Source: Candidatus Zhuqueibacterota bacterium (GTDB lineage: Bacteria > Zhuqueibacterota > Zhuqueibacteria > Thermofontimicrobiales > Thermofontimicrobiaceae). Taken from it: DNA of 64,000 nt. The notes under the pieces were generated by a model, which saw only the letters and a list, made by a program, of their open reading frames with translations, searched no databases and had not been told where the DNA came from. Below are positions 2,385 through 64,000 of the stretch, one piece after another. The number at the start of each line of letters is the position of its first letter. Positions within the stretch are counted from its first letter, which is position 1. The stretch lies in contig JBMOPW010000012.1 in the NCBI GenBank assembly GCA_049322915.1, positions 65,888 through 129,887 on the forward strand, in the 5' to 3' direction. A program made the position numbers and the translations under genes.

Positions 2385-3278
2385 ATGGCTTCTGGTATCG
2401 GAAATATCGAGAACAACCGTCTTGCCTACCTGTACACGGTGCCGGCCTTCGTGGTCATGGGGCTGGTTGTGCTGTACCCGTTTGTCTATAACATCATCCT
2501 GTCTTTTTCCAACATGAATCTGAGCCATTTCAACAACTGGCGACTCACAGGTTTTGAAAATTATTCTGCCGTCTTCCGGGAACGCACATTCTGGTATTTT
2601 TTAGGCAAGACTTTTTTGTGGACGGCGGTCAATGTATTTTTCCACGTGACCATCGGCGTCGCGCTGGCGCTCATTTTGAACAAAGACATCAAAGGGAAAT
2701 CGTTTTTCCGCACCCTGCTCATTCTGCCGTGGGCTGTCCCGCAGTACATCACCGCCCTCACCTGGCGCGGTCTGTTCAACTCCGAATACGGCGCGGTGAG
2801 CCTCATGCTGGATCAGGCTTTCGGCGTGCAGATTCCCTGGCTCACCACCGAATGGGGCGCGTTCACTGCCTGCGTCATCACCAATGTCTGGCTGGGCTTC
2901 CCGTTTATGATGGTCATTGCCCTGGGCGGATTGCAGAGCATCCCGGAAGAATTGTACGAAGCCTCGGACATCGACGGCGCTTCCTGGTACCACAAGCTGA
3001 AACATATCACACTGCCGCTGCTCAAGCCGGTGATGATCCCGGCCATCACGCTCGGCATTATCTGGACGTTCAATAATTTCAACGTGGTGTGGCTGGTGAG
3101 CAACGGCGGCGAGCCGGCGGATACGACGCATATTCTGGTCTCCTGGGTCTACAAGTCAGGATTCCGCTATTTCCGCATGGGCTACGCCGCTGCGTTCTCC
3201 ATGATCATCTTCATCTTCCTGCTCACGTTCAGTTGGAATTTCATCAAAAAGACGCGGGCGACCGAGGCGGTGTATTAG
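2385..3278 (+). CDS. Sugar ABC transporter permease (MalF-like)
   Basis: Hydrophobic helices; EAA loop LYEASDIDGAS; LPWAVP motif. Confidence 0.93.
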   Translation: MASGIGNIENNRLAYLYTVPAFVVMGLVVLYPFVYNIILSFSNMNLSHFNNWRLTGFENYSAVFRERTFWYFLGKTFLWTAVNVFFHVTIGVALALILNKDIKGKSFFRTLLILPWAVPQYITALTWRGLFNSEYGAVSLMLDQAFGVQIPWLTTEWGAFTACVITNVWLGFPFMMVIALGGLQSIPEELYEASDIDGASWYHKLKHITLPLLKPVMIPAITLGIIWTFNNFNVVWLVSNGGEPADTTHILVSWVYKSGFRYFRMGYAAAFSMIIFIFLLTFSWNFIKKTRATEAVY

Positions 3279-3903: not shown

Positions 3904-4076
3904 GTGACAGCAATTAAGCCGAAGAAAAAATTCACCGCAAATATCAGGAAAATTGATAATACAGCATTCACTATCGGCAGTCTTCACGACGATGGGGATG
4001 AAAAGCAAAACCGGTCAACCAAAACATATCAATAAAAAATACAAGCTCTTGAAATGCTGAGACAAATAATCTATGG
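3904..4076 (+). pseudogene. 5' part of small ORF interrupted by the cassette
   Basis: Frame reads VTAIKPKKKFTANIRKIDNTAFTIGSLHDDGDEKQNRSTKTYQ*KIQALEMLRQIIYG (internal TAA 4033-4035) and continues in frame at 6655. Confidence 0.7.
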
Positions 4077-6654
4077 TTAGCCGTGTATACAAATACAATA
4101 TTGTGATAAAATTATGATAACACAAATTAATAAATTAAAAGAGATCGGTATTTTCAAAGATTTCAATTGGAACAATGACATTCCTGATTTTAATAAAAAA
4201 AATATAATATTTGGATATAACGGATGTGGAAAGACGACATTAACTAATATTTTTAATTTGTTTTCCCAAATAGACAAAATTGAAAAAGATGAGTTATTTG
4301 CGGACATAGTGAATGATAAAGACATTTCTGAAATTGAATTAGTTTTCGATGGGAAAAAAGTTAAATACAATAAAGATTTAGCTAATGAAAAAATATGGAT
4401 CTTTAATACAGGATTTATTACAGGTCATATTTATGATGGTTCTTCATCAAATATTAAACAGTTTGATTCAAAGGTTGTAACAAAAGAACAACTCAAAAAT
4501 CCAGAAATAAAAAAAATTGAAGTAACTATTACGGTGAAAAAAGATACCTTTGCTAATTTTAAAACAGATAAAGAGAAATACGAAAATGAATTTGAAAAAA
4601 TTAAGAAGAAATATCAAATTGATTTTAATAATAAAATTTCTAATAAAAGATTAACGGGTTGGAATTTACCCAGCCATGCAACCCAGATCGATCTTAATAA
4701 AATCGATCAAGAGCTTGATGGATATTATAAGAAATACGAGCTTTCCCAAAAACAGGATGAATTTGCTAATGATATAGTCGAAATCGAAAAAATATTCATA
4801 AAATCAATTAAGCTTGATTTTGAAAATCTAACGATTGCATTTTTAAAAAGTATCTCAGAAACTGCAAGAGAGAAAGTTGAACAAAAAATAGCAACCTTAT
4901 CTGAAGTTCAATTAAAAAATTATAAAAGTTTGAGTGAATGGTTTGAAGATGGACTCCAGCTTTTAAAGAGAAATGATTCAAGTAAATTTTATAAATGCCC
5001 ACTCTGTGATAGCGATATAAAATTGAAAATTAATTCGTTAATTGGTGATTATGAAAGCTATTTTAATGATGAGTATAAAATTCTTATTAAAGACCTAAAT
5101 ACTCAATCAGAACAAATCGACATTATTAAAGAAATTTTGAAAGATAATATAATTTCCATTGAAAAAATAAAAACATTTGATAGTAAGTATTCTTATCTCA
5201 TTGATACAGACAAAAAAATAAATTATGAATATTCATTGGAGACCTGTGAAAAGGAATTAGAAAATTTACAGAAGCTGATTTCAGATAAAAAGGAAAATGT
5301 ATCATCCAAAGTACAGGCAGATAGTCTATTAAAAAACTTGAAGAATTTAGTTAATGATTATAATGTTAATTTCTTAAAACCTATCCATGAACAGAAAACT
5401 CTTATTTTTCAAGAATTGAAGAATCAAACTTTAAATGAATCTGTAATCGCTGATAAAATAAAAAATTTAATACAACAGAAGGGCAATTATGATTTTGATA
5501 CTTTTGATACTGGTAATTTAATAAGCGTATATTGGCAGAATGAAAATAATATAAAAAACATCAAAGATGACTTGTCGAAATTAGAAAGACAATTAGAATC
5601 TTCATTGGCTAAACTAAAAAATGAATCCAAATATGTTAATTTTTTTCTGAAACGATTGGGGATATTTCATTTTGAAATAAACATTGACAACACGAAGCCA
5701 AAAGAGAATATTTCAATACTTTATGAAAGCGGATGCACCAAAAATAAATTAAAAAATTCAATCAGCGAAAGTGAAAAATCAGCCTTAGCATTTGCTTACT
5801 TCTTAAGCAAATTACAATATGAAGTAATTGATAATACAACAACCAAATTGTCAGAATGTATCGTTATACTTGACGATCCAGTTTCAAGCTTAGACGAAAG
5901 GCGGCTTTATTCTACAGCTTTTTTAATAAATGATTTGTTAAAAGATGCAGGTCAATTATTTGTTATTAGTCATAATCTTATATTCTTAAAATATTATGGT
6001 AATATTCTTAGTGGCGATGATAGAAATGACTATTTTTTAAATGTAAGAAATAATCTTCCACTACTTCAATCCCTTCCTAAATCACTCTCAAATTATAAGA
6101 CAGCTTATTTTCAAAAATTAGATGATATTTTATCATATATAAATAATGACATTGATTACGAACAAGCTAAAAAGTCTATACCAGGTTGTATTCGTGTTGT
6201 CTTAGAAACATTTTTAAGTTTTAAGCTCTATATTTTAAAACAAGGTAGTAGCACTAATAAATATTTGTCGCCTGGATTAGATAAATTGATAAAAACTTTG
6301 AGCGGCCATATCGGATTATTTAAGAAATATGAAAAAGTCGAAGATATTGATCATGAAAATATTATCTCAAAATTGGAATTTATAAAAAAGACGACTGATC
6401 CCCAATGTCATGGTAGTCCGCAAAATATTGATGAATTCAATTTTATTGATGAAGCTGAATTGAAATTAATTTCTCGTGACGCTTTAAATATCATTAAATT
6501 TTTTGATAACGTTCATTATAATCAAATACAAAACGGCTAACAATCGGCTGCACCTGACAAAACTGCGGTGTTTCAAATCGGGTTAAGTGCAAAGTTTTAC
6601 AGTCATTTCGTTGTGTTAAATATAGTGTAGCAGTTTTGCAGGTGAGCCGGGTCG
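4077..6654 (+). mobile_element. Integron gene cassette (solitary, no intI in window)
   Basis: Left end G|TTAGCCGT (4076-4084) is the exact reverse complement of ACGGCTAAC (6533-6541); single ORF with short leader whose stop codon lies in the R'' box; ends at G|TTATGA. Confidence 0.88.
4114..6540 (+). CDS. AAA_13 / RloC-like SMC-type ABC ATPase with zinc hook and HEPN-like C-terminus
   Basis: Walker A GYNGCGKTT, coiled coil with CPLC hook, signature SESEK, Walker B/D-loop ILDDPVSSLD, H-loop SHN, C-terminal RVVLETFLSFK...DPQCHG. Confidence 0.85.
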   Translation: MITQINKLKEIGIFKDFNWNNDIPDFNKKNIIFGYNGCGKTTLTNIFNLFSQIDKIEKDELFADIVNDKDISEIELVFDGKKVKYNKDLANEKIWIFNTGFITGHIYDGSSSNIKQFDSKVVTKEQLKNPEIKKIEVTITVKKDTFANFKTDKEKYENEFEKIKKKYQIDFNNKISNKRLTGWNLPSHATQIDLNKIDQELDGYYKKYELSQKQDEFANDIVEIEKIFIKSIKLDFENLTIAFLKSISETAREKVEQKIATLSEVQLKNYKSLSEWFEDGLQLLKRNDSSKFYKCPLCDSDIKLKINSLIGDYESYFNDEYKILIKDLNTQSEQIDIIKEILKDNIISIEKIKTFDSKYSYLIDTDKKINYEYSLETCEKELENLQKLISDKKENVSSKVQADSLLKNLKNLVNDYNVNFLKPIHEQKTLIFQELKNQTLNESVIADKIKNLIQQKGNYDFDTFDTGNLISVYWQNENNIKNIKDDLSKLERQLESSLAKLKNESKYVNFFLKRLGIFHFEINIDNTKPKENISILYESGCTKNKLKNSISESEKSALAFAYFLSKLQYEVIDNTTTKLSECIVILDDPVSSLDERRLYSTAFLINDLLKDAGQLFVISHNLIFLKYYGNILSGDDRNDYFLNVRNNLPLLQSLPKSLSNYKTAYFQKLDDILSYINNDIDYEQAKKSIPGCIRVVLETFLSFKLYILKQGSSTNKYLSPGLDKLIKTLSGHIGLFKKYEKVEDIDHENIISKLEFIKKTTDPQCHGSPQNIDEFNFIDEAELKLISRDALNIIKFFDNVHYNQIQNG

Positions 6655-6712: not shown

Positions 6713-7555
6713 ATGCGAAAACCACGAGACCTATCTCTCACAGGAAAAATCGGCGCGTACTCGGTGCTGACGCTGTTCACACTGTTCTCTGTCTACCCCA
6801 TCCTTCGCGTCTTCACGATCTCGATTCGGCCCGGGGACAGGCTGTTGAGCAAATCGCTGGCGCTCATTCCCGAGAACGCCACGCTGGACACCTACGTTCG
6901 TCTGTTCACAAACGAACCCTTTCTCACATGGATGGGCAACAGCCTCATCATTTCATTGGTGGTTATGATTGTGGGCGTGGGATTGGCCGCCACTGCCGGC
7001 TATGCCTTTTCGCGGTACAAATTTGTCGGCAAGGATGCAGCCATGTTCAGCCTCATCACCACGCAAATGTTCCCCATGACCATGTTGCTGCTGCCTTTGT
7101 TCATTATGCTGATCAAATTAAAACTTTACGATTCATACATCGGACTCATCGTTGCCTATTCCGCCACGGCATTGCCCTTTACCACGTGGCAGATGAAAGG
7201 CTACTACGACACCATACCGTACAGTCTGGAAGAGGCCGCGTCCATTGATGGCTGCTCCCAGTTCGCCACCTTCTGGCGGATTGTCCTTCCCCTTGCCGCG
7301 CCGGCGCTGGTCATCACCGCGCTGTTCTCGTTCATGGCCGCCTGGTCTGAATATCTCGTTGCAGCGGTGCTCATTCAGGACCAGAGCCTGTTCACGCTGC
7401 CGCTGGGATTGAAGACATTCCAGTCCGCCATGGAAACATCCTGGGGATTGTATTCTGCCGGGGCAATCATTGTAAGTCTGCCAGTCGTCATTCTGTTTCT
7501 CTTTCTCAGTCGTTGGTTAATTTCCGGTCTCACTCTCGGAAGCGTTAAAGGTTAA
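6713..7555 (+). CDS. Sugar ABC transporter permease (MalG-like)
   Basis: MGNSLIIS, AGYAFSR, EAA loop LEEAASIDGCS, C-terminal GLTLGSVKG. Confidence 0.94.
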   Translation: MRKPRDLSLTGKIGAYSVLTLFTLFSVYPILRVFTISIRPGDRLLSKSLALIPENATLDTYVRLFTNEPFLTWMGNSLIISLVVMIVGVGLAATAGYAFSRYKFVGKDAAMFSLITTQMFPMTMLLLPLFIMLIKLKLYDSYIGLIVAYSATALPFTTWQMKGYYDTIPYSLEEAASIDGCSQFATFWRIVLPLAAPALVITALFSFMAAWSEYLVAAVLIQDQSLFTLPLGLKTFQSAMETSWGLYSAGAIIVSLPVVILFLFLSRWLISGLTLGSVKG

Positions 7556-48162: not shown

Positions 48163-48879
48163 ATGACCGATCTCCTTTTTCAAAACGACAGCTACATTCG
48201 TGAATTTGAAGCCACAGTCATTGAAAGTGACGCCGCTGAAAACAAGCTTGTACTGGATAAAACAGCATTTTACCCCGGCGGTGGTGGCCAGCCCAATGAC
48301 ACAGGCGAAATCATTGCCGGATCACTGCGCTTGCCGGTGATCAGAGTGAAAAAAGAGGGCGACCGCGTCTGGCACTGGGTCGACGGATCAGCTCCGGCAG
48401 TTGGGACAAAAATCACTGGCAGGATCGATTGGGATCTGCGCCACAAATTGATGCGCACCCACTCGGCGCTCCATGTGCTCTGCGGCGTTGTATGGCGCGA
48501 CTATGGCGCTCAGGTCACCGGGGGCAATATGGAGCCGCTGAAAGGCCGGATGGATTTCGAGTTCGAGACGTTGCAACGGGAGTTGGTGTCAGAAATCGAA
48601 CAGAAAGTCAATGAGGAGATCGACATGGCGCGGGATGTGCGCGTCAAAATTCTGCCGCGCGAAGAGGCGTTCCGGATTCCGGACCTGATACGGACAAAAA
48701 TCAATCTGCTGCCGCCATTCATCACCGAAGTGCGCACCGTTGAAATCGTCGGATTGGACTTGCAGGCCGACGGCGGCACGCATGTCGCCAATACTCGGGA
48801 AATCGGCCATGTGCGCGTTACGGACTACAAGAGCAAAGGCGCCATCAATAAACGGATCCATATTGAACTCGATTCCTGA
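48163..48879 (+). CDS. AlaX (AlaXp-M type) misacylated tRNA-Ala editing protein
   Basis: TAFYPGGGGQP.D.G, MRTHSALH, QADGGTHV. Confidence 0.93.
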   Translation: MTDLLFQNDSYIREFEATVIESDAAENKLVLDKTAFYPGGGGQPNDTGEIIAGSLRLPVIRVKKEGDRVWHWVDGSAPAVGTKITGRIDWDLRHKLMRTHSALHVLCGVVWRDYGAQVTGGNMEPLKGRMDFEFETLQRELVSEIEQKVNEEIDMARDVRVKILPREEAFRIPDLIRTKINLLPPFITEVRTVEIVGLDLQADGGTHVANTREIGHVRVTDYKSKGAINKRIHIELDS

Positions 48880-55710: not shown

Positions 55711-58248
55711 ATGCCAGGCATCAATCGAGTTCTTTGCTATGGGCTGATGGCGCTGCTCATGCTGGGTGGTTGCGGCAAGAAAACGGAGAAGCGGAAGATT
55801 AAACTGGCCGCCGCCAGCGATACCACCGAACAGCCGGATCAGCTCTCATCGACGATTTACCTGGAGCCCACGCTGCGCCGCGCCGTTGCTGTCATGTTTT
55901 TCGAGAATAAGACCGGCGACGAAAATCTGGCGTGGCTTCAAAAAGGCCTCACGGAAATGTTCATCCGTTCGCTCTCGCAATCCCAAAATATCTCGGTGAT
56001 TAGCTCCGAGCGCGTTTACGAAATTCTCGATCGGCTTGGCCGCACTGAAACCTCCAAAGAAATCAATCTGGACATGGCCGCCATTGTGGCGCGCGAAGCC
56101 AATGTGGAAACGCTCCTGACCGGCAATATTTCCAAAAACGGGGACGGCATCCGAATTAACGTTAAAGTGTTTGAAGCGGACAAAGAAAAAATTCTGAAAG
56201 AAGAAAGCGCCGAAGGCGCCGGGTTGGAACAGATTTTCAGTATGGTAGACAGCCTCACCCACAGCATCAAGAGCGAGCTGCGGCTGACGCTGGAGAAGGA
56301 CGGGACGAAAAAGAGCATCGCCGATATCACCACCACGTCTCTGGAGGCGTGGAGAAATTACATCAACGGCATCAATTTTCTCTATCAATATCGTCTGCCG
56401 GAGGCGCGGGAGCAACTGGAAAAGGCGATCCGATACGATCCCACATTCATCGCCGCTTACATAAGACTTTACAATCTGTATGCGTTGCAGGGATCGCGAT
56501 CCGAAAGCGACGCGGCATTCCAAAACCTGATTCGCTGCCGGGACAATGCCACGCCACAGGAGGCTTACCAGATCGATCTGATCGAAGCTGTACATCATGG
56601 TGATCTGCGGAAAATAATGGCTGTATCTCATGCGTGGCAGGCAGCGTTTCCCAACGACCGGGAGGCGAATTACAACCTGGCAAATACTTATTTTCAAATG
56701 GCAAATTACGATCAGGCCATTGAGTACTATGAAAATGTCCTGAGAATCGATCCTAATTTCCAAACCGCCAACAACATACTGGGCTATGCCTATGCCTACA
56801 CCGGCCAGTTCGCCAAAGCCATCTCCCGGGTGGAGAAATATAAACAACTCTCCCCGGATGAACCGAATCCATACGACAGCCTCGGCGAGATTTACCTGTT
56901 CATGGGCGATTTCGAAAAAGCTCAGGAAAATTTCAGGCAGGCCACTCAAGTCAACGAAAACTTCGTCTATAGCTGGATCCATCTCGGCGAAACCTATTTC
57001 GAGACCGGCGATTACAAAAAAGCCATGGACCACTTTCAAAAGGCAGCGCACATGGCGAAGGACAATGTCAATTCCGTGGTAGCCTACCGCGCGCTGGGCA
57101 TGACGCAACTGCGACTGGGGAATAGTGAGGCAGCGGCGGCATCTTTATCAAAATACCTGGATTATCAGACCAATTATTATACCAATTTCACCCTCATAAA
57201 CGATCTGTATTTGAGCCAGCGAGACACGGCGCGGGCCAATGAAATGATGGAAAAAAATTACCGCCGCATCATCGAGACAATTAACACCGATCCTATCCGA
57301 ATTCTGGACCTGGCCAATCTCGGCTTCTGGCACAATTATAAAATCAAAGAGACGATAGACATCATCCAACGGAGAATTCAGGAATCGGACAATGATTTCG
57401 CCAACCTGTGGGGCCGATTTGTCATTGCGCTGCTCTACCTGAAATCGGACCAGACCGACCAGTTCGAAAAAGTGTCCGATGATTTCGCCCGCGAGTTCAT
57501 TGAAATCATCAACGACGTCCGCGACATTCGTTACAACTATCTCACCTGGAAGGGCTATCTCGTGTTCAACGAATATGCCTATCGGTTCAAAGAAGAGGGC
57601 GTCGCCAAATACAATGAGCTGATCCGCTATTGCCAGCAAAATAGCCTCAACATGCCGGAGATGGTGTTCCGCTCGTTTCTGGCTGATCTGTATTTTCAGA
57701 CAGGAGAGACTGAAAAGGCCAGACTTGAGTTGAAACTCGCCGGGGTTCCGCCGGAGCATGTCTGGTGGCATCTGGGACCATTTGAGAATGAAAATGGCTT
57801 TTCGAAACAATTTCCGCCCGAGAAAAAGATCGATCTGAAACGCAGCTACAAAGGTCTCACCTCGGACATCCGTTGGGGAAAAATCAACGATGGCTTTCGC
57901 GAAGGGTATGTCAATTACAAACAGGCTTTCCCGCTCACCAACTGGGGAGTGTGTTACGCCCTTGTGTACATCAAGAGTCCGACAGCAACGTCAGCCCAAA
58001 TTCGATTGGGTTCCAATGAATCGGTGAAAGTGTGGTTGAATGACAACGAGGTCTGGCGCTGGAATGAAGTGCGCAGTTCCATTTTTGACGATGATGTGGT
58101 TCAGGTGTCCTTGCAGCCGGGGATGAATAAAGTGCTCGTCAAGATTTGCAACCGCATTGGCGAATGGGGATTCTATTTTCGCGTGACGGACGAGCAGGGC
58201 GTGGGCCTGCCGGATATCGAGTTCGTGTCTCCTCCCGAAATGAATTGA
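55711..58248 (+). CDS. Lipoprotein: TolB-N/FlgO-like domain + TPR + C-terminal beta-sandwich (paralogue 2)
   Basis: Lipobox LGGC; same collinear motifs as 52352-54913 (KRKIKL, WLQKGLTEM, SPDE.NPYD, FRVTD..G.G..DIEFVS). Confidence 0.85.
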   Translation: MPGINRVLCYGLMALLMLGGCGKKTEKRKIKLAAASDTTEQPDQLSSTIYLEPTLRRAVAVMFFENKTGDENLAWLQKGLTEMFIRSLSQSQNISVISSERVYEILDRLGRTETSKEINLDMAAIVAREANVETLLTGNISKNGDGIRINVKVFEADKEKILKEESAEGAGLEQIFSMVDSLTHSIKSELRLTLEKDGTKKSIADITTTSLEAWRNYINGINFLYQYRLPEAREQLEKAIRYDPTFIAAYIRLYNLYALQGSRSESDAAFQNLIRCRDNATPQEAYQIDLIEAVHHGDLRKIMAVSHAWQAAFPNDREANYNLANTYFQMANYDQAIEYYENVLRIDPNFQTANNILGYAYAYTGQFAKAISRVEKYKQLSPDEPNPYDSLGEIYLFMGDFEKAQENFRQATQVNENFVYSWIHLGETYFETGDYKKAMDHFQKAAHMAKDNVNSVVAYRALGMTQLRLGNSEAAAASLSKYLDYQTNYYTNFTLINDLYLSQRDTARANEMMEKNYRRIIETINTDPIRILDLANLGFWHNYKIKETIDIIQRRIQESDNDFANLWGRFVIALLYLKSDQTDQFEKVSDDFAREFIEIINDVRDIRYNYLTWKGYLVFNEYAYRFKEEGVAKYNELIRYCQQNSLNMPEMVFRSFLADLYFQTGETEKARLELKLAGVPPEHVWWHLGPFENENGFSKQFPPEKKIDLKRSYKGLTSDIRWGKINDGFREGYVNYKQAFPLTNWGVCYALVYIKSPTATSAQIRLGSNESVKVWLNDNEVWRWNEVRSSIFDDDVVQVSLQPGMNKVLVKICNRIGEWGFYFRVTDEQGVGLPDIEFVSPPEMN

Positions 58249-58267
58249 AAATGCACAAAGGCGGCGT

Positions 58268-59161
58268 ATGAATGTCATTGAAGTCAACGGTCTGACGAAA
58301 TTTTATGGCGCCATTCGCGGCGTTGAGGGAATCCGGTTTCAGGTCGGGCGCGGTGAGATTTTCGGATTTCTGGGGCCCAACGGTGCCGGCAAAACAACCA
58401 CCATCCATCTGATCATGAACCTGATCCATCCGGATCGCGGGACGATTCAGGTGTTCGGCGACAGGTTGGACAACGATCGGGTGGAATTACGCGACCGCAT
58501 GGGTTACTTGCCGGGCGACTTCAACGCCTATCGCGAAATGTCCGGCCGCAAATTTCTGAATTACATAGCCGGCTATCGCTCCCGTCCGCCAGCGCTTCGG
58601 GAGATGCTATTGGAGAAATTGAAACTGACGGCCAAAGACCTGGGCCAGATGACAAAGTATCTGTCCCACGGCACGCGACGGAAGCTGGGAATTGTCTTTG
58701 CGCTGGAACATGATCCGGATCTGGTAATTCTGGACGAACCGACACAGGGTCTCGATCCGTTGATGCAGGAAGCCTTTTACGAGATCATCCTCGATTTTCA
58801 GCAGCGGGGGAAAACCATCTTTTTTTCGTCCCACATCCTTCGGGAAGTCGAGCGAATCTGCCATCGTGTGGCCATCATCCGCGCGGGCAAAATCGTCACC
58901 GAAGAATCGATCTCGGCGCTGAAACAAAAACGCTCCCGTCGGCTCATCCTCGAATTCAACGATGAAAGCGCGGTCCAAAACATCAATGTACCGGGTGTGA
59001 AATTCATCAAAAAAATCGGCAGGCAATGGATGTACCAGGTCGAGGGCAACATCCCGGAATTGCTGGCGCAGTTATCCGCTCTGGCCATTGAGGACATCAT
59101 CTTTCCGGAGCCGAATCTGGAGGATATTTTTCTGGATTATTACACGGGAGAGAATTCTTGA
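58268..59161 (+). CDS. ABC exporter ATP-binding protein
   Basis: GPNGAGKTT, LSHG, ILDEP, SSH. Confidence 0.95.
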   Translation: MNVIEVNGLTKFYGAIRGVEGIRFQVGRGEIFGFLGPNGAGKTTTIHLIMNLIHPDRGTIQVFGDRLDNDRVELRDRMGYLPGDFNAYREMSGRKFLNYIAGYRSRPPALREMLLEKLKLTAKDLGQMTKYLSHGTRRKLGIVFALEHDPDLVILDEPTQGLDPLMQEAFYEIILDFQQRGKTIFFSSHILREVERICHRVAIIRAGKIVTEESISALKQKRSRRLILEFNDESAVQNINVPGVKFIKKIGRQWMYQVEGNIPELLAQLSALAIEDIIFPEPNLEDIFLDYYTGENS

Positions 59162-59967
59162 TCTACTGGAATTACATTCGAAAATCGCTGCGCGAGCATG
59201 CCGGCTTCATTCTGTTCTCGTGGATACTGGTCGGCATTTTTCAGTTGCTCATGGTGACGCTGGTGATCGAAGCCAATATCCTCAGCCTGGCCCAGGTCTT
59301 TTTCAATCAGTTCCCACCGATGGTGCAGCAATTTGTCAGCGAGGAATTGCTGGCTCAGTTCTCCATTGGTGGCGCTGTTGCATTTGGCTTCAACCATCCC
59401 ATTGTGCTCATTGTCCTGGCGCTCGTCGCCATCACCCTGCCGGCGAAACACATCGCCGGCGAAATCGAAAGCGGCACTCTGGAATTGATGCTTTCTCTGC
59501 CAGTAAACCGTACAAAATTGGCCGGCTCTTTGTGGGTATTTTCCGCAGCAGCCCTTCTGATCATCATCTCCGGCGCATGGATTGGTTCGCTCGTCGGTCG
59601 GTTATTTTATCCGCAATTGGGAGAAATCCCGATGCATCGCGTGATCTGGATCGGACTGCATCTCTGGCTGCTGATGCTGGTGATCAACGCCATGGCCTTT
59701 GCTGCGTCGGTTTTCTCCAGGGAACAGAGCAAGGTCGCTCAGCGCACCGCCGGCCTGGCGCTGCTGCTGTATTTTTTGTACTACGCAACAAAATTCTCGG
59801 ACAGCCTCCACCCTCTCAAATACCTCAGTCTCTTCTATTATTACCAGCCGCAGGAAATCATTTTCGGCAGAATACCTTTTTGGGGCGACATTCTGCTGCT
59901 ATCCATAACGCTGCTGTTGATGATTGGCTCGGTCTATAAATTCAAAAACCGGGGCATTCCCGGTTAA
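59158..59967 (+). CDS. ABC-2 type permease
   Basis: About 6 TMs; IAGEIESGTLELMLSLPV.R; YLSLFYYY; TTG start overlapping upstream stop. Confidence 0.88.
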   Translation: MIYWNYIRKSLREHAGFILFSWILVGIFQLLMVTLVIEANILSLAQVFFNQFPPMVQQFVSEELLAQFSIGGAVAFGFNHPIVLIVLALVAITLPAKHIAGEIESGTLELMLSLPVNRTKLAGSLWVFSAAALLIIISGAWIGSLVGRLFYPQLGEIPMHRVIWIGLHLWLLMLVINAMAFAASVFSREQSKVAQRTAGLALLLYFLYYATKFSDSLHPLKYLSLFYYYQPQEIIFGRIPFWGDILLLSITLLLMIGSVYKFKNRGIPG

Positions 59968-60243
59968 GCGGATAGCGTTAACAATCCATTTCCCTCGCAT
60001 CCGCTTTGTCAGGAGGAATCGTGCCTTCCTCCAACCACTCAAGCGCTGCCGCCATGTCAATGTCTGGCATTCTGTACATGTCGAAAGCAGAGTGCGTGAT
60101 ACATGCGCTTCGCAAGTCATTGAGCAGCTTGCGGCATCCGGTGGAAGCGACGAGTTCAGCGAATTCCGAGGCCATAGCCTTCACCAGATCGGAGTCAATA
60201 TCTCATTCGACTCTTCCCACCCCGCGCGGGTTTAGCCCGGTCA

Positions 60244-61632
60244 TCATTTCCAGTATTTGCTGATGAATTCCTGCACTTCCGGAATGCCGCCCTGGAAAAT
60301 CAAATAGCCGTTATGGGGCTCCCGCTCTGTAATTTCGCCGGCAATCGGGGTGAGCATGATATTCCGCACCTGGTCCGGATCCGAGGTTTGCCCCAATGCC
60401 CAGCCCAGTTTGACATATGCCACCTCCGGCAACATATTGGCCGCCGGAATAACGCCCAGTTCCATCATGTCGCGGCCGGTGTCGTAGACATACATCTGCA
60501 CATATCCCCACAACGTCTGCACGGTCATGTACATGGCAACGCCTTTATCGTGAGCGCGTTTCAGCGCCGGGTACAGCGGTTTGTTCACGTGTCCCAGTCC
60601 GGTGCCGGCAATGACAATGCCCTTGTATCCGTTATCAATCAGCGCATCGATGATATCCGGCTGCATGTTGGGATAATAATAAAGAATCGTCACCTTCTCT
60701 TCGAACGCGGTGTTGATGGTGACATTCCGGTCGCTGCGCCGATGTTTATAATCATCGCGCAGATGAACGAAACGGTCGCGGCTGACCATGGCCAGCGGAA
60801 TATCGCCGATGGTCCGAAAGGTCGACCGATAGCTGGAATGCATTTTGCGAACCCGCGTTCCCCGATGCAGCAAATCGTACTGGTCGCTGGTCGGGCCGAA
60901 CATGCAGACCATCACTTCAGCGATATCGCCCTCTGCCGCGCTTTTCGTCGCATTGATCAAATTCATGGCCGCATCCGAAGACGGCCGGTCGCTGGATCGC
61001 TGCGACCCGACCATCACAATCGGCACTGGCGAATTCTGCACCATGAACGACAGGATCGCCGACGTGTGGTGCATCGTGTCGGTCCCATGGCCGATCACAA
61101 TGCCGTCAACGCCCTTCTCGATTTCGCTGCCAATCGCCCGGGCCGTGCCAATCCACTGCTCCGGGCCCATGTTCTCGCTGAAAACGCCGTACAGCTTTTC
61201 GGTTTCCAGATTGCAGATATCCGCCAGCTCCGGGACCGAGCCGTACAGTTCCCCGGGCGAGAACGCCGGTATCACCGCGCCGGTGCGATAATCCAGCCGG
61301 CTGGCAATGGTGCCGCCGGTGCCAAACAGCTTGACGCGCGGCTTGTTCGGTTCGTACGGAAACGCCTTTTCCGGAATTTTGTAATGGGCCTTTTTATACC
61401 CCTTTTCCGTGATCTGCTCAATTGTCTCCACGGCAAGTCCCACATTGTACCCGTTGTGCAGTTTCAGCACGATGTGATGATCATCCGCGGTTTCGGATCT
61501 GGGGAGAATAATGCCGGAGAAGTCACCGCGCGTGGTATGCACTTCCACATCGCTCCACACCTGCACTGCGGCATTCTTCAATGCCGTGAGCGCCGGTCCC
61601 CGATAGCCTTTATATGTATCGTTGTCAGTCAT
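60244..61632 (-). CDS. gatD: Glu-tRNA(Gln) amidotransferase subunit D (archaeal-type glutaminase)
   Basis: N-terminal GIILPR...HIVLKL.NGYNVG domain; TGGTIASR.DY.TGAV, HGTDT, QRSSDRPSSDA, RKMHSS; adjacent to gatE; start at MTDND. Confidence 0.94.
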   Translation of the reverse strand: MTDNDTYKGYRGPALTALKNAAVQVWSDVEVHTTRGDFSGIILPRSETADDHHIVLKLHNGYNVGLAVETIEQITEKGYKKAHYKIPEKAFPYEPNKPRVKLFGTGGTIASRLDYRTGAVIPAFSPGELYGSVPELADICNLETEKLYGVFSENMGPEQWIGTARAIGSEIEKGVDGIVIGHGTDTMHHTSAILSFMVQNSPVPIVMVGSQRSSDRPSSDAAMNLINATKSAAEGDIAEVMVCMFGPTSDQYDLLHRGTRVRKMHSSYRSTFRTIGDIPLAMVSRDRFVHLRDDYKHRRSDRNVTINTAFEEKVTILYYYPNMQPDIIDALIDNGYKGIVIAGTGLGHVNKPLYPALKRAHDKGVAMYMTVQTLWGYVQMYVYDTGRDMMELGVIPAANMLPEVAYVKLGWALGQTSDPDQVRNIMLTPIAGEITEREPHNGYLIFQGGIPEVQEFISKYWK

Positions 61633-61651
61633 GCATTGTCCTTTTTCTCTT

Positions 61652-63580
61652 TCATTCACTGAGCCGATTGGTCACCTGAACCAGCACATCCGCGCCGGCG
61701 ACCCGGCCGCGTATTTCTTCCATCACCAGTCCCATGACGAATCGCTTCCTTCGCTCGAAATCCGGAATTGCCACCACCCGCGCTTCGGCGAGCACTTCAT
61801 CGATTTTTTCTTCAACCTGCCGCGCGGTTAATTTTTGGTAGTCCGGCGCAATCTCGTTCACCGGCAGATCCTCCTCCAGAATATCCCGGACGATGAGCGG
61901 AATCGCCTCCCGAAGGATGGCTCGCTCTTTGTACAACTGAAAAATTGATTTGATCATGTCATCGGTCAATTTCGCCACCGGCAAATTTTTCCGCTTGAGA
62001 TATTTCAAAAACTGAACGAGGAACACGGCAGCGAGTTTCGGCTCCACATTCTGCGATTGAGTCAATGCATCGAACAGATCGGCGCGGCCATTGAGCAGCA
62101 GGCCATCGATGAGCGTTTCGTCGAGACCCAGGCTCGTGTACTTTTTCCGACGCGCCCACGGCAGGGGCGGCAGCGCAGCGCGGATGCGCTCGATTCGTTC
62201 CGATGTCAATGCAATGGGCGGCAAATCGGTGTCCGGGTACATCCGATCCGGGCCGGGCAGAATGCGCTCGAAACCGGTAGTGCCGTCCGGCAAATCCTGG
62301 CGCGTCTCGCTGGGGACGCCGATGATGGCCTCCCTGGCGCGGATGGCGGCTTCATTGAGAGCGGTATCCACATCGGCCGGCGCGCCCCAGACGACAACCA
62401 GCGCATCGACCGGCTCGAAGTTGCTGACCTTTTTTATCTTCTGCCAGAACGTGCTGCCAATGGTTTCATCCTCCGTGTCCGAGTGAATCATATTGGGGAT
62501 GTTATCGAGACAGGCAATCACCCGAATGCGGTCGGAAATTTCCTTGGCAAAATTCGTCCCCGGCTGAGTCGGGAATTTCAGTATATCGCGAAAGCGCGGC
62601 AATTTCACGCACTTGATTTTTGACTCGTGGGTGATGAGATTTTTGATGGGGAGATAGCTGGTATTGCGCAGAATGTCGGTCACATCGAAGAATTCCGGCT
62701 TGAAAGAATCCGGGCTCAGACCGCGTGATTTCAGTTTCTCGCGAATATCGAGCAATGCCTTTTGCCGGCCGGCTTCGTTGTGGACCAGCCGGGGAATGAG
62801 CGGAATTCGCGACACGCCTTTAATCTCCACGCGCGTCCCGCCGCGGATGCTCACGTTGACATCCTGCCTCGCAGCGCCGATGCCGCGGTTCACCTTGCCG
62901 GTCGTCCGGGTGAGCCGTCGGATGAGCTGCGCCACATCGGCCACCTCCTGGGGTGTGCGCATGTCCGGATAGGTCACCACTTCAATCAGCGGCATGCCCA
63001 GCCTGTCGGTGCGATACGTCCGCAGATGGCCAGTGTCGCTCACTTCGCGGCAGGCATCTTCTTCCAGCCCCAATTGAATGATCCCGATTTTCCGATTGCG
63101 GTAGGGAATCACGCCGTCGATGCCCAGAATGGTCGTGCGCTGAAATCCAGTGGGGATGCTGCCATCCAGATACTGCTTTCTGGCAATGTGCAATTCGCTC
63201 ACCACATTGCATTTGAGCAGCAGGGTAATTTCCAGCGCAATGTCCAGAGCCTGCTGGTTCAACTCGAACGGCGGCGCATCATCCATCTCGTAGGTGCACA
63301 CAGTCTCATTGTTGAGCTGGTACACGATTTCCTTTTTGGTTTTGAACTCCATCAGCGCCGTGCCATCGTACTCACCCAATTCGGACAGCGTGGGACGCAT
63401 GTGCCGTAAAATTTCAGCATCATAATTTTTATCGTAATGCCCGGCAGGACAACGGCAGAACAGCTTGCGCTGCGTGTGCAATTGCTGGTGGATTTCCAGC
63501 CCTGCCTTCAGCCCCAACTCGGCATATCCATCAGGACTCATCTCTTCGAAATTATTAATCATTGTGTCGGTGTGCTCCAT
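61652..63580 (-). CDS. gatE: Glu-tRNA(Gln) amidotransferase subunit E (archaeal-type)
   Basis: LGLKAGLEIHQQL, RPTLSELGEYD, RKQYLDGSIPTGFQRT, LEEDA, DRLGMPLIE, RQDVNVSI, insertion domain, LPGPDRMYPDTD; start 63580 or 63562. Confidence 0.95.
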   Translation of the reverse strand: MEHTDTMINNFEEMSPDGYAELGLKAGLEIHQQLHTQRKLFCRCPAGHYDKNYDAEILRHMRPTLSELGEYDGTALMEFKTKKEIVYQLNNETVCTYEMDDAPPFELNQQALDIALEITLLLKCNVVSELHIARKQYLDGSIPTGFQRTTILGIDGVIPYRNRKIGIIQLGLEEDACREVSDTGHLRTYRTDRLGMPLIEVVTYPDMRTPQEVADVAQLIRRLTRTTGKVNRGIGAARQDVNVSIRGGTRVEIKGVSRIPLIPRLVHNEAGRQKALLDIREKLKSRGLSPDSFKPEFFDVTDILRNTSYLPIKNLITHESKIKCVKLPRFRDILKFPTQPGTNFAKEISDRIRVIACLDNIPNMIHSDTEDETIGSTFWQKIKKVSNFEPVDALVVVWGAPADVDTALNEAAIRAREAIIGVPSETRQDLPDGTTGFERILPGPDRMYPDTDLPPIALTSERIERIRAALPPLPWARRKKYTSLGLDETLIDGLLLNGRADLFDALTQSQNVEPKLAAVFLVQFLKYLKRKNLPVAKLTDDMIKSIFQLYKERAILREAIPLIVRDILEEDLPVNEIAPDYQKLTARQVEEKIDEVLAEARVVAIPDFERRKRFVMGLVMEEIRGRVAGADVLVQVTNRLSE

Positions 63581-63611
63581 GATTCTGTTTGATGCGAGAA
63601 TTGAACATTCA

Positions 63612-63640
63612 AAAATACAAAATTGGGCTGAGAATGTCAA
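63612..63640 (-). promoter_or_regulatory. sigma70-type promoter for gatED
   Basis: TTGACA-N17-TATTTT. Confidence 0.65.
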
Positions 63641-63911
63641 GCCTTTAAATGAATAATAAAATATTGTTTCAAAGATTGCCCTAATTTTATTATGTGAATT
63701 TTTCGCGCGCCCTAATAAAAAAACCGACATGCAGATTGCCGGTTTTTAGAATCGATATTTAAAATACAAGTGACCCGTTGAAAGTATATGCAATATATTC
63801 GATACTTTTTTATATCTGTAATGGGCAGTCGCGAGCGTCCACTACGCGTATGTCCAATAACAATATAGGGTAGTTGATCACAGGGGATCAAAAGTTGTAT
63901 TTGTTTACTTT

Positions 63912-63968
63912 GGACAGGATAACAGGATGATAATGATTTACCGGATTATTCTCTATCCGGTAATATCC
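63912..63968. repeat. Short iterated/inverted repeat remnant
   Basis: ACAGGATAACAGGAT tandem plus TTACCGGAT-N8-ATCCGGTAA palindrome. Confidence 0.4.
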
Positions 63969-64000
63969 TCACCTTTCTTTTTAGTTCTACCTTATGTGGA

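Follow-up and report, generated by a model that had tools for sequence, protein, structure and literature searches.

The tRNA-dependent amidotransferase GatDE is stated to occur "exclusively in archaea" in the abstract of PMC2811023, and the GatDE passages of reviews up to 2021–2022 (PMC9499178, PMC8007984) keep it archaea-only. In a 64,000-nt stretch of DNA from an uncultured sediment-type bacterium (Candidatus Zhuqueibacterota bacterium, assembly GCA_049322915.1, contig JBMOPW010000012.1, below C12), the region 60244–63640 carries a gatE gene followed by a gatD gene. The whole stretch is called the window here, and coordinates are window positions unless another contig is named. The locus raises the question of what an archaeal-type amidotransferase does in a bacterium and where it came from. 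The window operon was confirmed to encode a genuine, intact GatE and GatD; rather than a singular import, it represents an ordinary case within a very large group of bacterial GatDE genes. As judged from sequence, it is probably the resident operon for the tRNA-dependent amidotransferase of a bacterial clade, which most likely would amidate Glu-tRNA(Gln) on a tRNA(Gln) with a U1-A72 first pair.

Identity of the two genes and of their host

In the analysis with protein family profiles, the GatE protein scored 583 bits with NF003107 (cut-off 456) and 492 bits with TIGR00134 (cut-off 319.55). It fell below every GatB model, the best of which gave 179 bits against a cut-off of 338 (GatB cut-offs range from 314.8 to 680). 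According to Pfam, the 277-position GatB_N profile (positions 2–277) is stretched over residues 75–514 of GatE, with a large insertion inside, and a GatB_Yqey tail is also recognised (46.6 bits). For GatD, TIGR02153 gave 523 bits (cut-off 324) and NF003217 gave 518 bits (cut-off 310); plain asparaginase models gave 394 bits (type I) and 165 bits (type II), both below the GatD scores. Pfam detected GatD_N (54 bits) together with the asparaginase N and C domains. The GatE and GatD models clearly win over those of GatB and asparaginases, and the first-pass annotation of this DNA was right in describing a full-length gatE with a central insertion, distinct from gatB, and a gatD with the N-terminal domain and both threonine motifs (TGGTIAS and HGTDTM).

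The GatD motifs TGGTIAS, HGTDTM and RVRKMH, whose residues we take to be catalytic, align with the archaeal structures 2d6f_A and 1zq1_A and are invariant in 12/12 GatDs of the host phylum (mean column identity 81%). The gatD of a genome from the same genus is 82.9% identical to the window gatD in DNA and 93% in protein. In GatE, the cradle motifs GLEIHQQL, ARKQYLDGS..GFQRT, LEEDA, DRLGMPLIE and RQDVNVS are kept in at least 80–95% of 89 bacterial GatEs. Conservation in this set is lowest in the tail and in much of the inserted domain, and the cradle hardly varies. The GatE tail aligns with that of 1zq1 at RGRVAGAD/RGKADGKL and lacks the KxGKxK motif, the Lys-rich tail motif of GatB as defined in a passage of PMC2811023. 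A GAD domain is found on 35–95% of members in atlas clusters, which is taken as a lead only.

The positions of the features are given in Table 1. The gatE reading frame is open further upstream to its first ATG (61652–63730, 692 aa). In this longer frame, the family match starts at residue 69, and relatives align from about residue 52–57, so the inner ATG listed in the table is probably the start. The gatD gene overlaps the gatE stop codon by 8 nt, and ATG 61632 is an alternative gatD start.

Table 1. Features of the gatE–gatD region in the window
Feature	Position	Strand	Basis and remarks
gatE, kinase/transamidase subunit	61652–63580	minus	642 aa from ATG 63580; profile and structure-sequence alignment
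gatD, asparaginase-type ammonia-releasing subunit	60244–61659	minus	471 aa, GTG start 61659; profile and alignment
Promoter-like site TTGACA-N17-TATTTT	63612–63640	minus	10/12 consensus positions; 32 nt before the gatE ATG
Terminator-like hairpin and T run	59947–59965	minus	consensus scan; about 280 nt after the gatD stop, at the end of a convergent ABC-2 permease gene

The TTGACA-N17 promoter proposed earlier was found, with its first base at 63640, where the region delimited in the first-pass annotation begins. Promoter-like sites numbered 12 in the region, with 3.9 expected from shuffled sequence, so that the consensus match alone is weak evidence of a promoter. Upstream of gatE, 4/9 aligned genomes of the host family (the window, G124, G130 and G131) retain the motif, and this retention is better evidence for a putative promoter than the consensus match itself. 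For terminator-like sites, 2 were found against 4.1 expected, which is also weak evidence.

The host genome comprises 6.25 Mb in 45 contigs, with 96% completeness and 2.5% contamination. Its 16S rRNA receives 1620 bits from the bacterial small-subunit rRNA model, and the genes around the operon in the window are bacterial (secretin, PilM, type II secretion proteins E and F, sigma-54 activator, DksA, SpoIIE and STAS). Both results agree with the bacterial surroundings described earlier. GC content is 0.55 and 0.52 over the operon and 0.26–0.56 across the window; the operon lies within the window range, in keeping with the first reading, which described it as compositionally like its neighbours.

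The window ends where contig C12 ends (129,887 bp), and the operon lies within the last 3.8 kb of this contig. Such a position would suit a recent foreign island or an assembly or binning artefact, that is, archaeal DNA or a fresh import at a contig end, as would a high-depth repeat that begins about 300 nt upstream of gatE. Moreover, the flanking genes are not common even to the same-genus genome: of 7 flanking window proteins, none was found within about 20 kb of gatED in four family genomes, so that synteny with these close relatives is lacking. The junction between gatD and the ABC permease is bridged in one sample only, and samples X2 and X3, which yielded short pieces only, do not bridge it. 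On the other hand, a Logan contig of 14,743 nt, produced by a second assembler from the same probable source sample, joins the ABC-transporter genes, gatD and gatE and shows 0 differences over 56000–63903. Contiguity over 59967–60244 is confirmed by this contig, whose depth is uniform (67.5) over the neighbours and the operon. At 63881–64000, the depth in the second assembly rises from 67.5 to about 790–900, as in a multi-copy repeat; because of this jump, contig C12 is considered to end in a repeat and not at a foreign junction. In the second study (X2), low-depth pieces that differ by 1–3% cover the TPR (tetratricopeptide repeat) gene, the ABC genes and gatE. An artefact or fresh import is highly improbable in view of these data, of the GC content within the window range, of the promoter motif common to three other family genomes, of the 93% identical GatD in the same genus and of the presence of gatE in 11/13 other genomes of the family.

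The window gatED has neither a tRNA gene nor glnA nor a passenger gene next to it. Elsewhere in the window, a very AT-rich segment (4001–6540; GC 0.26 against 0.42–0.56 in the rest) contains a gene for an 808-aa AAA_13 ATPase at 4114–6540. This gene separates two ABC permease genes (2385–3278 and 6713–7555), as if it had been inserted into a transporter operon. Another gene of tRNA quality control, at 48163–48879 and unlinked to gatED, encodes a free-standing editing protein of AlaX type, which comprises the end of the alanyl-tRNA synthetase core and the tRNA_SAD domain.

Distribution among bacteria and origin

Among 167 genomes of the host phylum, gatE was detected above the cut-off in 51. 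In 26/31 phylum loci, gatD lies on the same strand at most 1.6 kb downstream of gatE. Compared with the window copy, the phylum relatives are 71–93% identical in GatD and 45–80% in GatE. One relative with a GatD inside the host-family clade was deposited under the label "candidate division KSB1".

A scan of GTDB species genomes seeded with two GatD motifs returned at least 599 stretches, of which 598 were confirmed. The loci from named metagenome-assembled genomes are the best 80 of these at least 599 stretches. In the best 80, GatD is 76–93% identical to that of the window, gatE adjoins gatD in 74/80 and lies upstream on the same strand in 73/80. Their depositor labels include Ignavibacteria/Melioribacter, Bacteroidota, Aminicenantes, Fermentibacteria/Aegiribacteria, Zixibacteria, Calditrichia, KSB1, Cloacimonetes, Neomarinimicrobiota and others, some of the labels being plainly unreliable. 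A search of a large protein collection with a divergent member as seed gave at least 7991 clusters at E <= 1e-100 (8000 candidates scored); named members belong to Phycisphaerae/Planctomycetota (contigs of 5.3 and 5.7 Mb) and Gemmatimonas. In addition, a metagenome scan was aimed at the genomic surroundings of P0001, the nearest 50%-identity representative, which itself falls in the Planctomycetota-labelled part of the bacterial GatD clade. It gave 46 loci, 44 of them closer to the window GatD than to P0001; the exceptions are L177 (44% identity to P0001 against 43%) and L178 (no GatD match).

This large bacterial group is named in databases and has not been taken up in the literature or reviews. 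Full-text searches, judged by titles and abstracts, found no published report of bacterial GatDE, and the word amidotransferase is absent from the main text of the genome papers on Melioribacter (PMC3534657) and Zhuqueibacterota (PMC11683472). With a bacterial 16S rRNA in the host, bacterial genes around the operon and gatE in 51/167 phylum genomes, GatDE does not occur only in archaea. It is the statement of the reviews that is lowered by this occurrence, not the membership of the window pair in the GatDE family.

To place the bacterial sequences, GatD trees were constructed from the bacterial loci, unnamed 50%-identity representatives and a single outgroup, the host's own asparaginase (28% identical). 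Through their clusters, a few representatives were labelled as Sigynarchaeota, Thermococcus, Bathyarchaeia, Nitrososphaerota and Desulfurococcaceae. In the FastTree tree (221 rows), all 100 bacterial-labelled rows formed one clade. In the finished IQ-TREE search under LG+G4 (72 rows), a 43-row group with a support of 100/100 and a stem of 0.6 contained every bacterial row, four unnamed representatives and a pair consisting of a Sigynarchaeota-labelled sequence and P0006, its inner branching being unsupported. The unnamed representative P0007 was the sister of this group (97/90). A quick search of 36 rows under a site-heterogeneous model joined the bacterial rows (support 100, stem 0.45) with the Sigynarchaeota/P0006 pair as their sister (96), nested among the archaeal representatives. 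A constraint that made one clade of the remaining archaeal representatives, and so put the root between them and the bacterial group, raised the likelihood by +62.9 under LG+G4 (approximately unbiased test, p 0.96) and by +8.2 under the mixture model (p 0.63) and was not rejected. Long-branch attraction is a real risk in the constrained tree, because its outgroup is a single long branch and the stem is long as well.

The bacterial GatD sequences have diverged far less within their clade than the archaeal representatives have from one another. For this reason, an old transfer out of an archaeal lineage near Asgard/TACK-type sequences is favoured and seems a likely origin of bacterial GatDE; such a transfer, followed by spread among bacteria, would be the simplest account of one multi-phylum clade. 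The GatDs of the host phylum fall in at least four places of the bacterial clade, beside other phyla, which points to transfer among bacteria; many of the nodes concerned are weak, GatD being highly conserved. The less favoured alternative is that bacterial GatDE is an old sister lineage. In its most far-reaching form, the bacterial branch would stand beside all archaeal GatDs sampled, GatDE would date from before the domain split, and the bacterial enzyme would have been retooled for U1-A72 tRNAs and would stand in for GatCAB, possibly with Glu plus Asp as substrates. The higher score of the tree with archaea as one clade would fit this view, as would several near-complete genomes in which GatDE is the sole amidotransferase. 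This far-reaching form is fairly improbable, with the very shallow bacterial divergence and the single far outgroup, prone to long-branch attraction, counting against it.

Two origins had been offered in the first-pass annotation. The "unrecognised bacterial clade" is the better description, and the ameliorated archaeal transfer is compatible with the trees, which do not demonstrate it: they recover one long-stemmed bacterial clade and do not separate a nested from a sister position.

Bacterial-clade GatD was also encountered in genomes of an archaeal class. The genome of locus L110 (G169, with L197 and L209) was deposited as a Thermoplasmatales archaeon and is archaeal by ribosomal protein S28e. 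The second genome, G172 (L202 and L210), was drawn as a member of the class of G169, the S28e check having been made in G169. In this class, gatD was present in 37/41 sampled genomes, and of 30 loci fetched from it, 28 were of archaeal type (GatD 40–45% identical to that of the window). The GatDs of G169 and G172 belong to the bacterial clade and are 76% and 74% identical to the window GatD, respectively. In both genomes, gatE and gatD are divergent, a second, archaeal-type gatD was not found, and domain-diagnostic genes are absent around gatED. These cases represent either a transfer back into archaea or mis-binning. If the placement is true, the bacterial GatDE clade has crossed domains more than once.

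A further protein, P0002 (943 aa), joins the N-terminal part of the GatE cradle (GatB_N, residues 24–304) to a complete GatD. Either the two are naturally fused in it, or the gene call, made on a 12.8-kb contig, is frame-shifted.

Proposed function beside other routes to Gln-tRNA(Gln)

According to profile searches, the host encodes GlnRS (753 bits, cut-off 426) and AsnRS (492 bits, cut-off 343). Genes gatA and gatB are adjacent on contig C44 (gatB at C44:58520–59935, 529 bits), gatC being outside the search. Four AsnB-type genes exceed the cut-off, and asnA was not found in the host genome search. ARAGORN detected 47 tRNA genes in the host genome; those for tRNA(Gln), with CTG and TTG anticodons, both have U1-A72 and G73, and a third tRNA(Gln) was not found. 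Two GluRS genes are present, both of bacterial type. One of them (G000:C32:58703–60191, locus L126) lies in a tRNA gene cluster and ends 35 nt before tRNA-Gln(CTG). It scores higher with T. maritima GluRS2 than with GluRS1 (366 vs 340 bits), and the C7 copy shows the reverse (460 vs 391). The C32 GluRS is a possible tRNA(Gln)-charging paralogue and might be the source of Glu-tRNA(Gln).

These genes bear on two earlier suggestions. The proposal that the first pair of tRNA(Gln) and GluRS have co-adapted with GatDE finds no support in a host with bacterial-type GluRS, U1-A72 and G73, the archaeal A1-U72 pair being absent from both tRNA(Gln) genes. As for the archaeal signature route to Gln-tRNA(Gln), an archaeal-type GatDE is indeed present in a bacterium; since the host also has GlnRS, AsnRS, gatA and gatB, GatDE is not its only (signature) route.

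The strongest indication of function came from the distribution of gatB, counted at E <= 1e-70 across the 167 phylum genomes. It is present in 35 and absent in 16 of the 51 gatE-positive genomes; in the 116 gatE-negative genomes, the respective numbers are 101 and 15. In family f21, gatB is absent in 5/6 gatE-positive genomes and present in 5/6 gatE-negative ones, and in families f25 and f26, each of the five genomes has gatE and lacks gatB. The GatDs of these three families cluster together. No gatA above the cut-off was found in any of five gatE-positive, gatB-negative genomes checked (94–99% complete). GatDE partly substitutes for GatCAB in the phylum and can stand in for it, and this replacement pattern of gatB and gatA is the best functional evidence short of an assay.

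From family membership, conservation and the pattern of GatCAB replacement, we infer that the window GatDE, presumably expressed, would amidate Glu-tRNA(Gln). GluRS would place glutamate on tRNA(Gln), and GatD, with its asparaginase fold, would release ammonia from Gln or Asn. GatE would phosphorylate the side-chain carboxyl of the tRNA-bound glutamate and then amidate it to give Gln-tRNA(Gln). In the host, GatDE would act as a second amidotransferase beside GlnRS and GatCAB; certain related lineages within the phylum have no amidotransferase left but GatDE.

Several observations weigh against this interpretation. GlnRS is above the cut-off in 146/167 genomes of the phylum (50/51 of those with gatE), and AsnRS in 149/167 (48/51 of those with gatE); being near-universal, the two synthetases make an amidotransferase unneeded on gene content. 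Fifteen phylum genomes have neither gatB nor gatE, and four of them (G140, G146, G147 and G066) are at least 90% complete and contain both GlnRS and AsnRS, which means that an amidotransferase is usual in the phylum and not obligatory. Since the genomes counted include relatives, which are not independent cases, perhaps only a few events underlie the gatB/gatE pattern. The host tRNA(Gln) has U1-A72, against the A1-U72 that archaeal GatDE is reported to read; the window enzyme must therefore recognise its tRNA in another way or less strictly. Conservation among bacterial GatEs is poor in the tail, the part of GatE that binds the D-loop in archaea. Finally, a module of GluRS2 plus GatDE was considered and rejected, since the gltX copies do not track gatE: the 51 gatE-positive genomes have two copies in 24 cases, one in 26 and none in 1.

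A change of substrate was weighed against Glu-tRNA(Gln) amidation. The enzyme of the bacterial clade may have come to amidate Asp-tRNA(Asn), either alone or with Glu as a second substrate, and so fill the whole role of GatCAB, including tRNA-dependent asparagine synthesis. High-quality phylum genomes with GatDE alone, lacking gatB or gatA, would suit such a role. A long stem (0.45–0.6 changes per column) followed by very short branches would fit a burst of change and subsequent fixation, and the least conserved part of bacterial GatEs is the tail, which helps to exclude tRNA(Asn) in archaea according to the relevant part of PMC2811023. This change of substrate is nevertheless unlikely: the catalytic cradle is GatE-type throughout, AsnRS accompanies gatE in nearly all positive genomes, as counted above, and with four AsnB-type genes in the host, tRNA-dependent asparagine synthesis is unneeded. 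As a reason for keeping GatDE, this synthesis is unsupported in the host, which has AsnRS besides the AsnB-type genes.

GatDE could also have been kept outside translation, in a nitrogen-linked amide-transfer or ammonia-releasing role, or as a decaying relic. On gene content, it is redundant with the GlnRS, AsnRS and GatCAB of the host. Flanking genes were scanned in 73 loci (120/125 open reading frames; L058:5408–8698, L068:5409–8612, L082:5426–8659 and both frames of L092 were left out). Also in favour of such a role, glnA is directly beside gatE in L048, L054 and G169, and among Fermentibacteria-labelled loci, a sigma-54 response regulator is found upstream of the operon in three (L049, L076 and L105) and a hibernation factor downstream in six (L049, L050, L080, L096, L105 and L113). 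A PIN-PhoH gene is upstream in 7 loci. Such synteny is lineage-specific, and no conserved functional neighbour or third partner was found among the 120 flanking reading frames. With intact frames, a tRNA-amidotransferase core strongly conserved across phyla, gatE and gatD always travelling as a pair and neighbours that vary by lineage, a role outside translation is very unlikely, and amidation of Glu-tRNA(Gln) is preferred.

Some arrangements at these loci deserve mention in their own right. In L048 and L054, the glutamine synthetase gene glnA is directly upstream of gatE on the same strand, and in G169, it lies directly behind gatE. Locus L104 has a GlnRS-type gene upstream of gatE in divergent orientation. 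In L031, L034 and L057, about 1.5 kb separates gatE and gatD, which gives room for one inserted gene.

Implications and comparison with known systems

In the passages of PMC9499178, PMC8007984 and PMC2811023 that deal with the question, the A1-U72 pair of tRNA(Gln) is said to explain the absence of GlnRS from archaea, an argument built on an archaea-only GatDE. A large bacterial GatDE clade does not fit such co-evolution arguments: it coexists with GlnRS, would work on U1-A72 tRNA(Gln) if active, and replaces GatCAB in places. The new observations are the near-universal GlnRS and AsnRS beside GatDE in the phylum, the partial substitution of GatCAB and the single long-stemmed clade of bacterial GatD. 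Their value lies in the clade, the window copy being one more ordinary example. Three questions become testable: how GatE reads a bacterial acceptor stem, why bacteria with GlnRS and AsnRS keep an amidotransferase, and whether GatDE existed before the domain split.

The window pair has the same two subunits, with the same domain order, as archaeal GatDE of Methanothermobacter thermautotrophicus (2d6f) and Pyrococcus abyssi (1zq1). In full-length alignments, GatD gives 421 bits with 2d6f_A and 407 bits with 1zq1_A, and GatE gives 343 bits with 2d6f and 408 bits with 1zq1. The short GatE loop, which adjoins tRNA pair 1-72 according to the structural part of PMC2811023, reads KVNRGIG in the window and KVKRGLG in both archaeal structures; the GatE-type loop is kept. 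The first pair of tRNA(Gln) differs, being U1-A72 in the bacterial host, whereas archaeal GatDE reads the A1-U72 pair and the D-loop, as described in sections of PMC9499178 and PMC2943598. Gene order is gatE–gatD in bacteria and gatD–gatE in six archaeal loci with both genes in view. Bacterial GatD extends past the last residue of both solved archaeal GatDs by about 20 residues, which form a conserved tail; by alignment range, this tail is also present in the Sigynarchaeota-labelled relative. The window GatDE coexists with GlnRS, unlike archaeal GatDE, no archaeon having GlnRS according to the relevant passage of the 2022 review PMC9499178.

With bacterial GatCAB, the likeness consists in the catalytic cradle and the YqeY-type tail that GatE and GatB share (Pfam GatB_N and GatB_Yqey). 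The two systems differ in the ammonia-releasing subunit, which has an asparaginase fold in GatD and is an amidase in GatA, and the solved GatDE structures contain no GatC. In contrast to GatB, GatE has a large inserted domain, and the window GatE, which fails every GatB model, belongs on the GatDE side of this divide.

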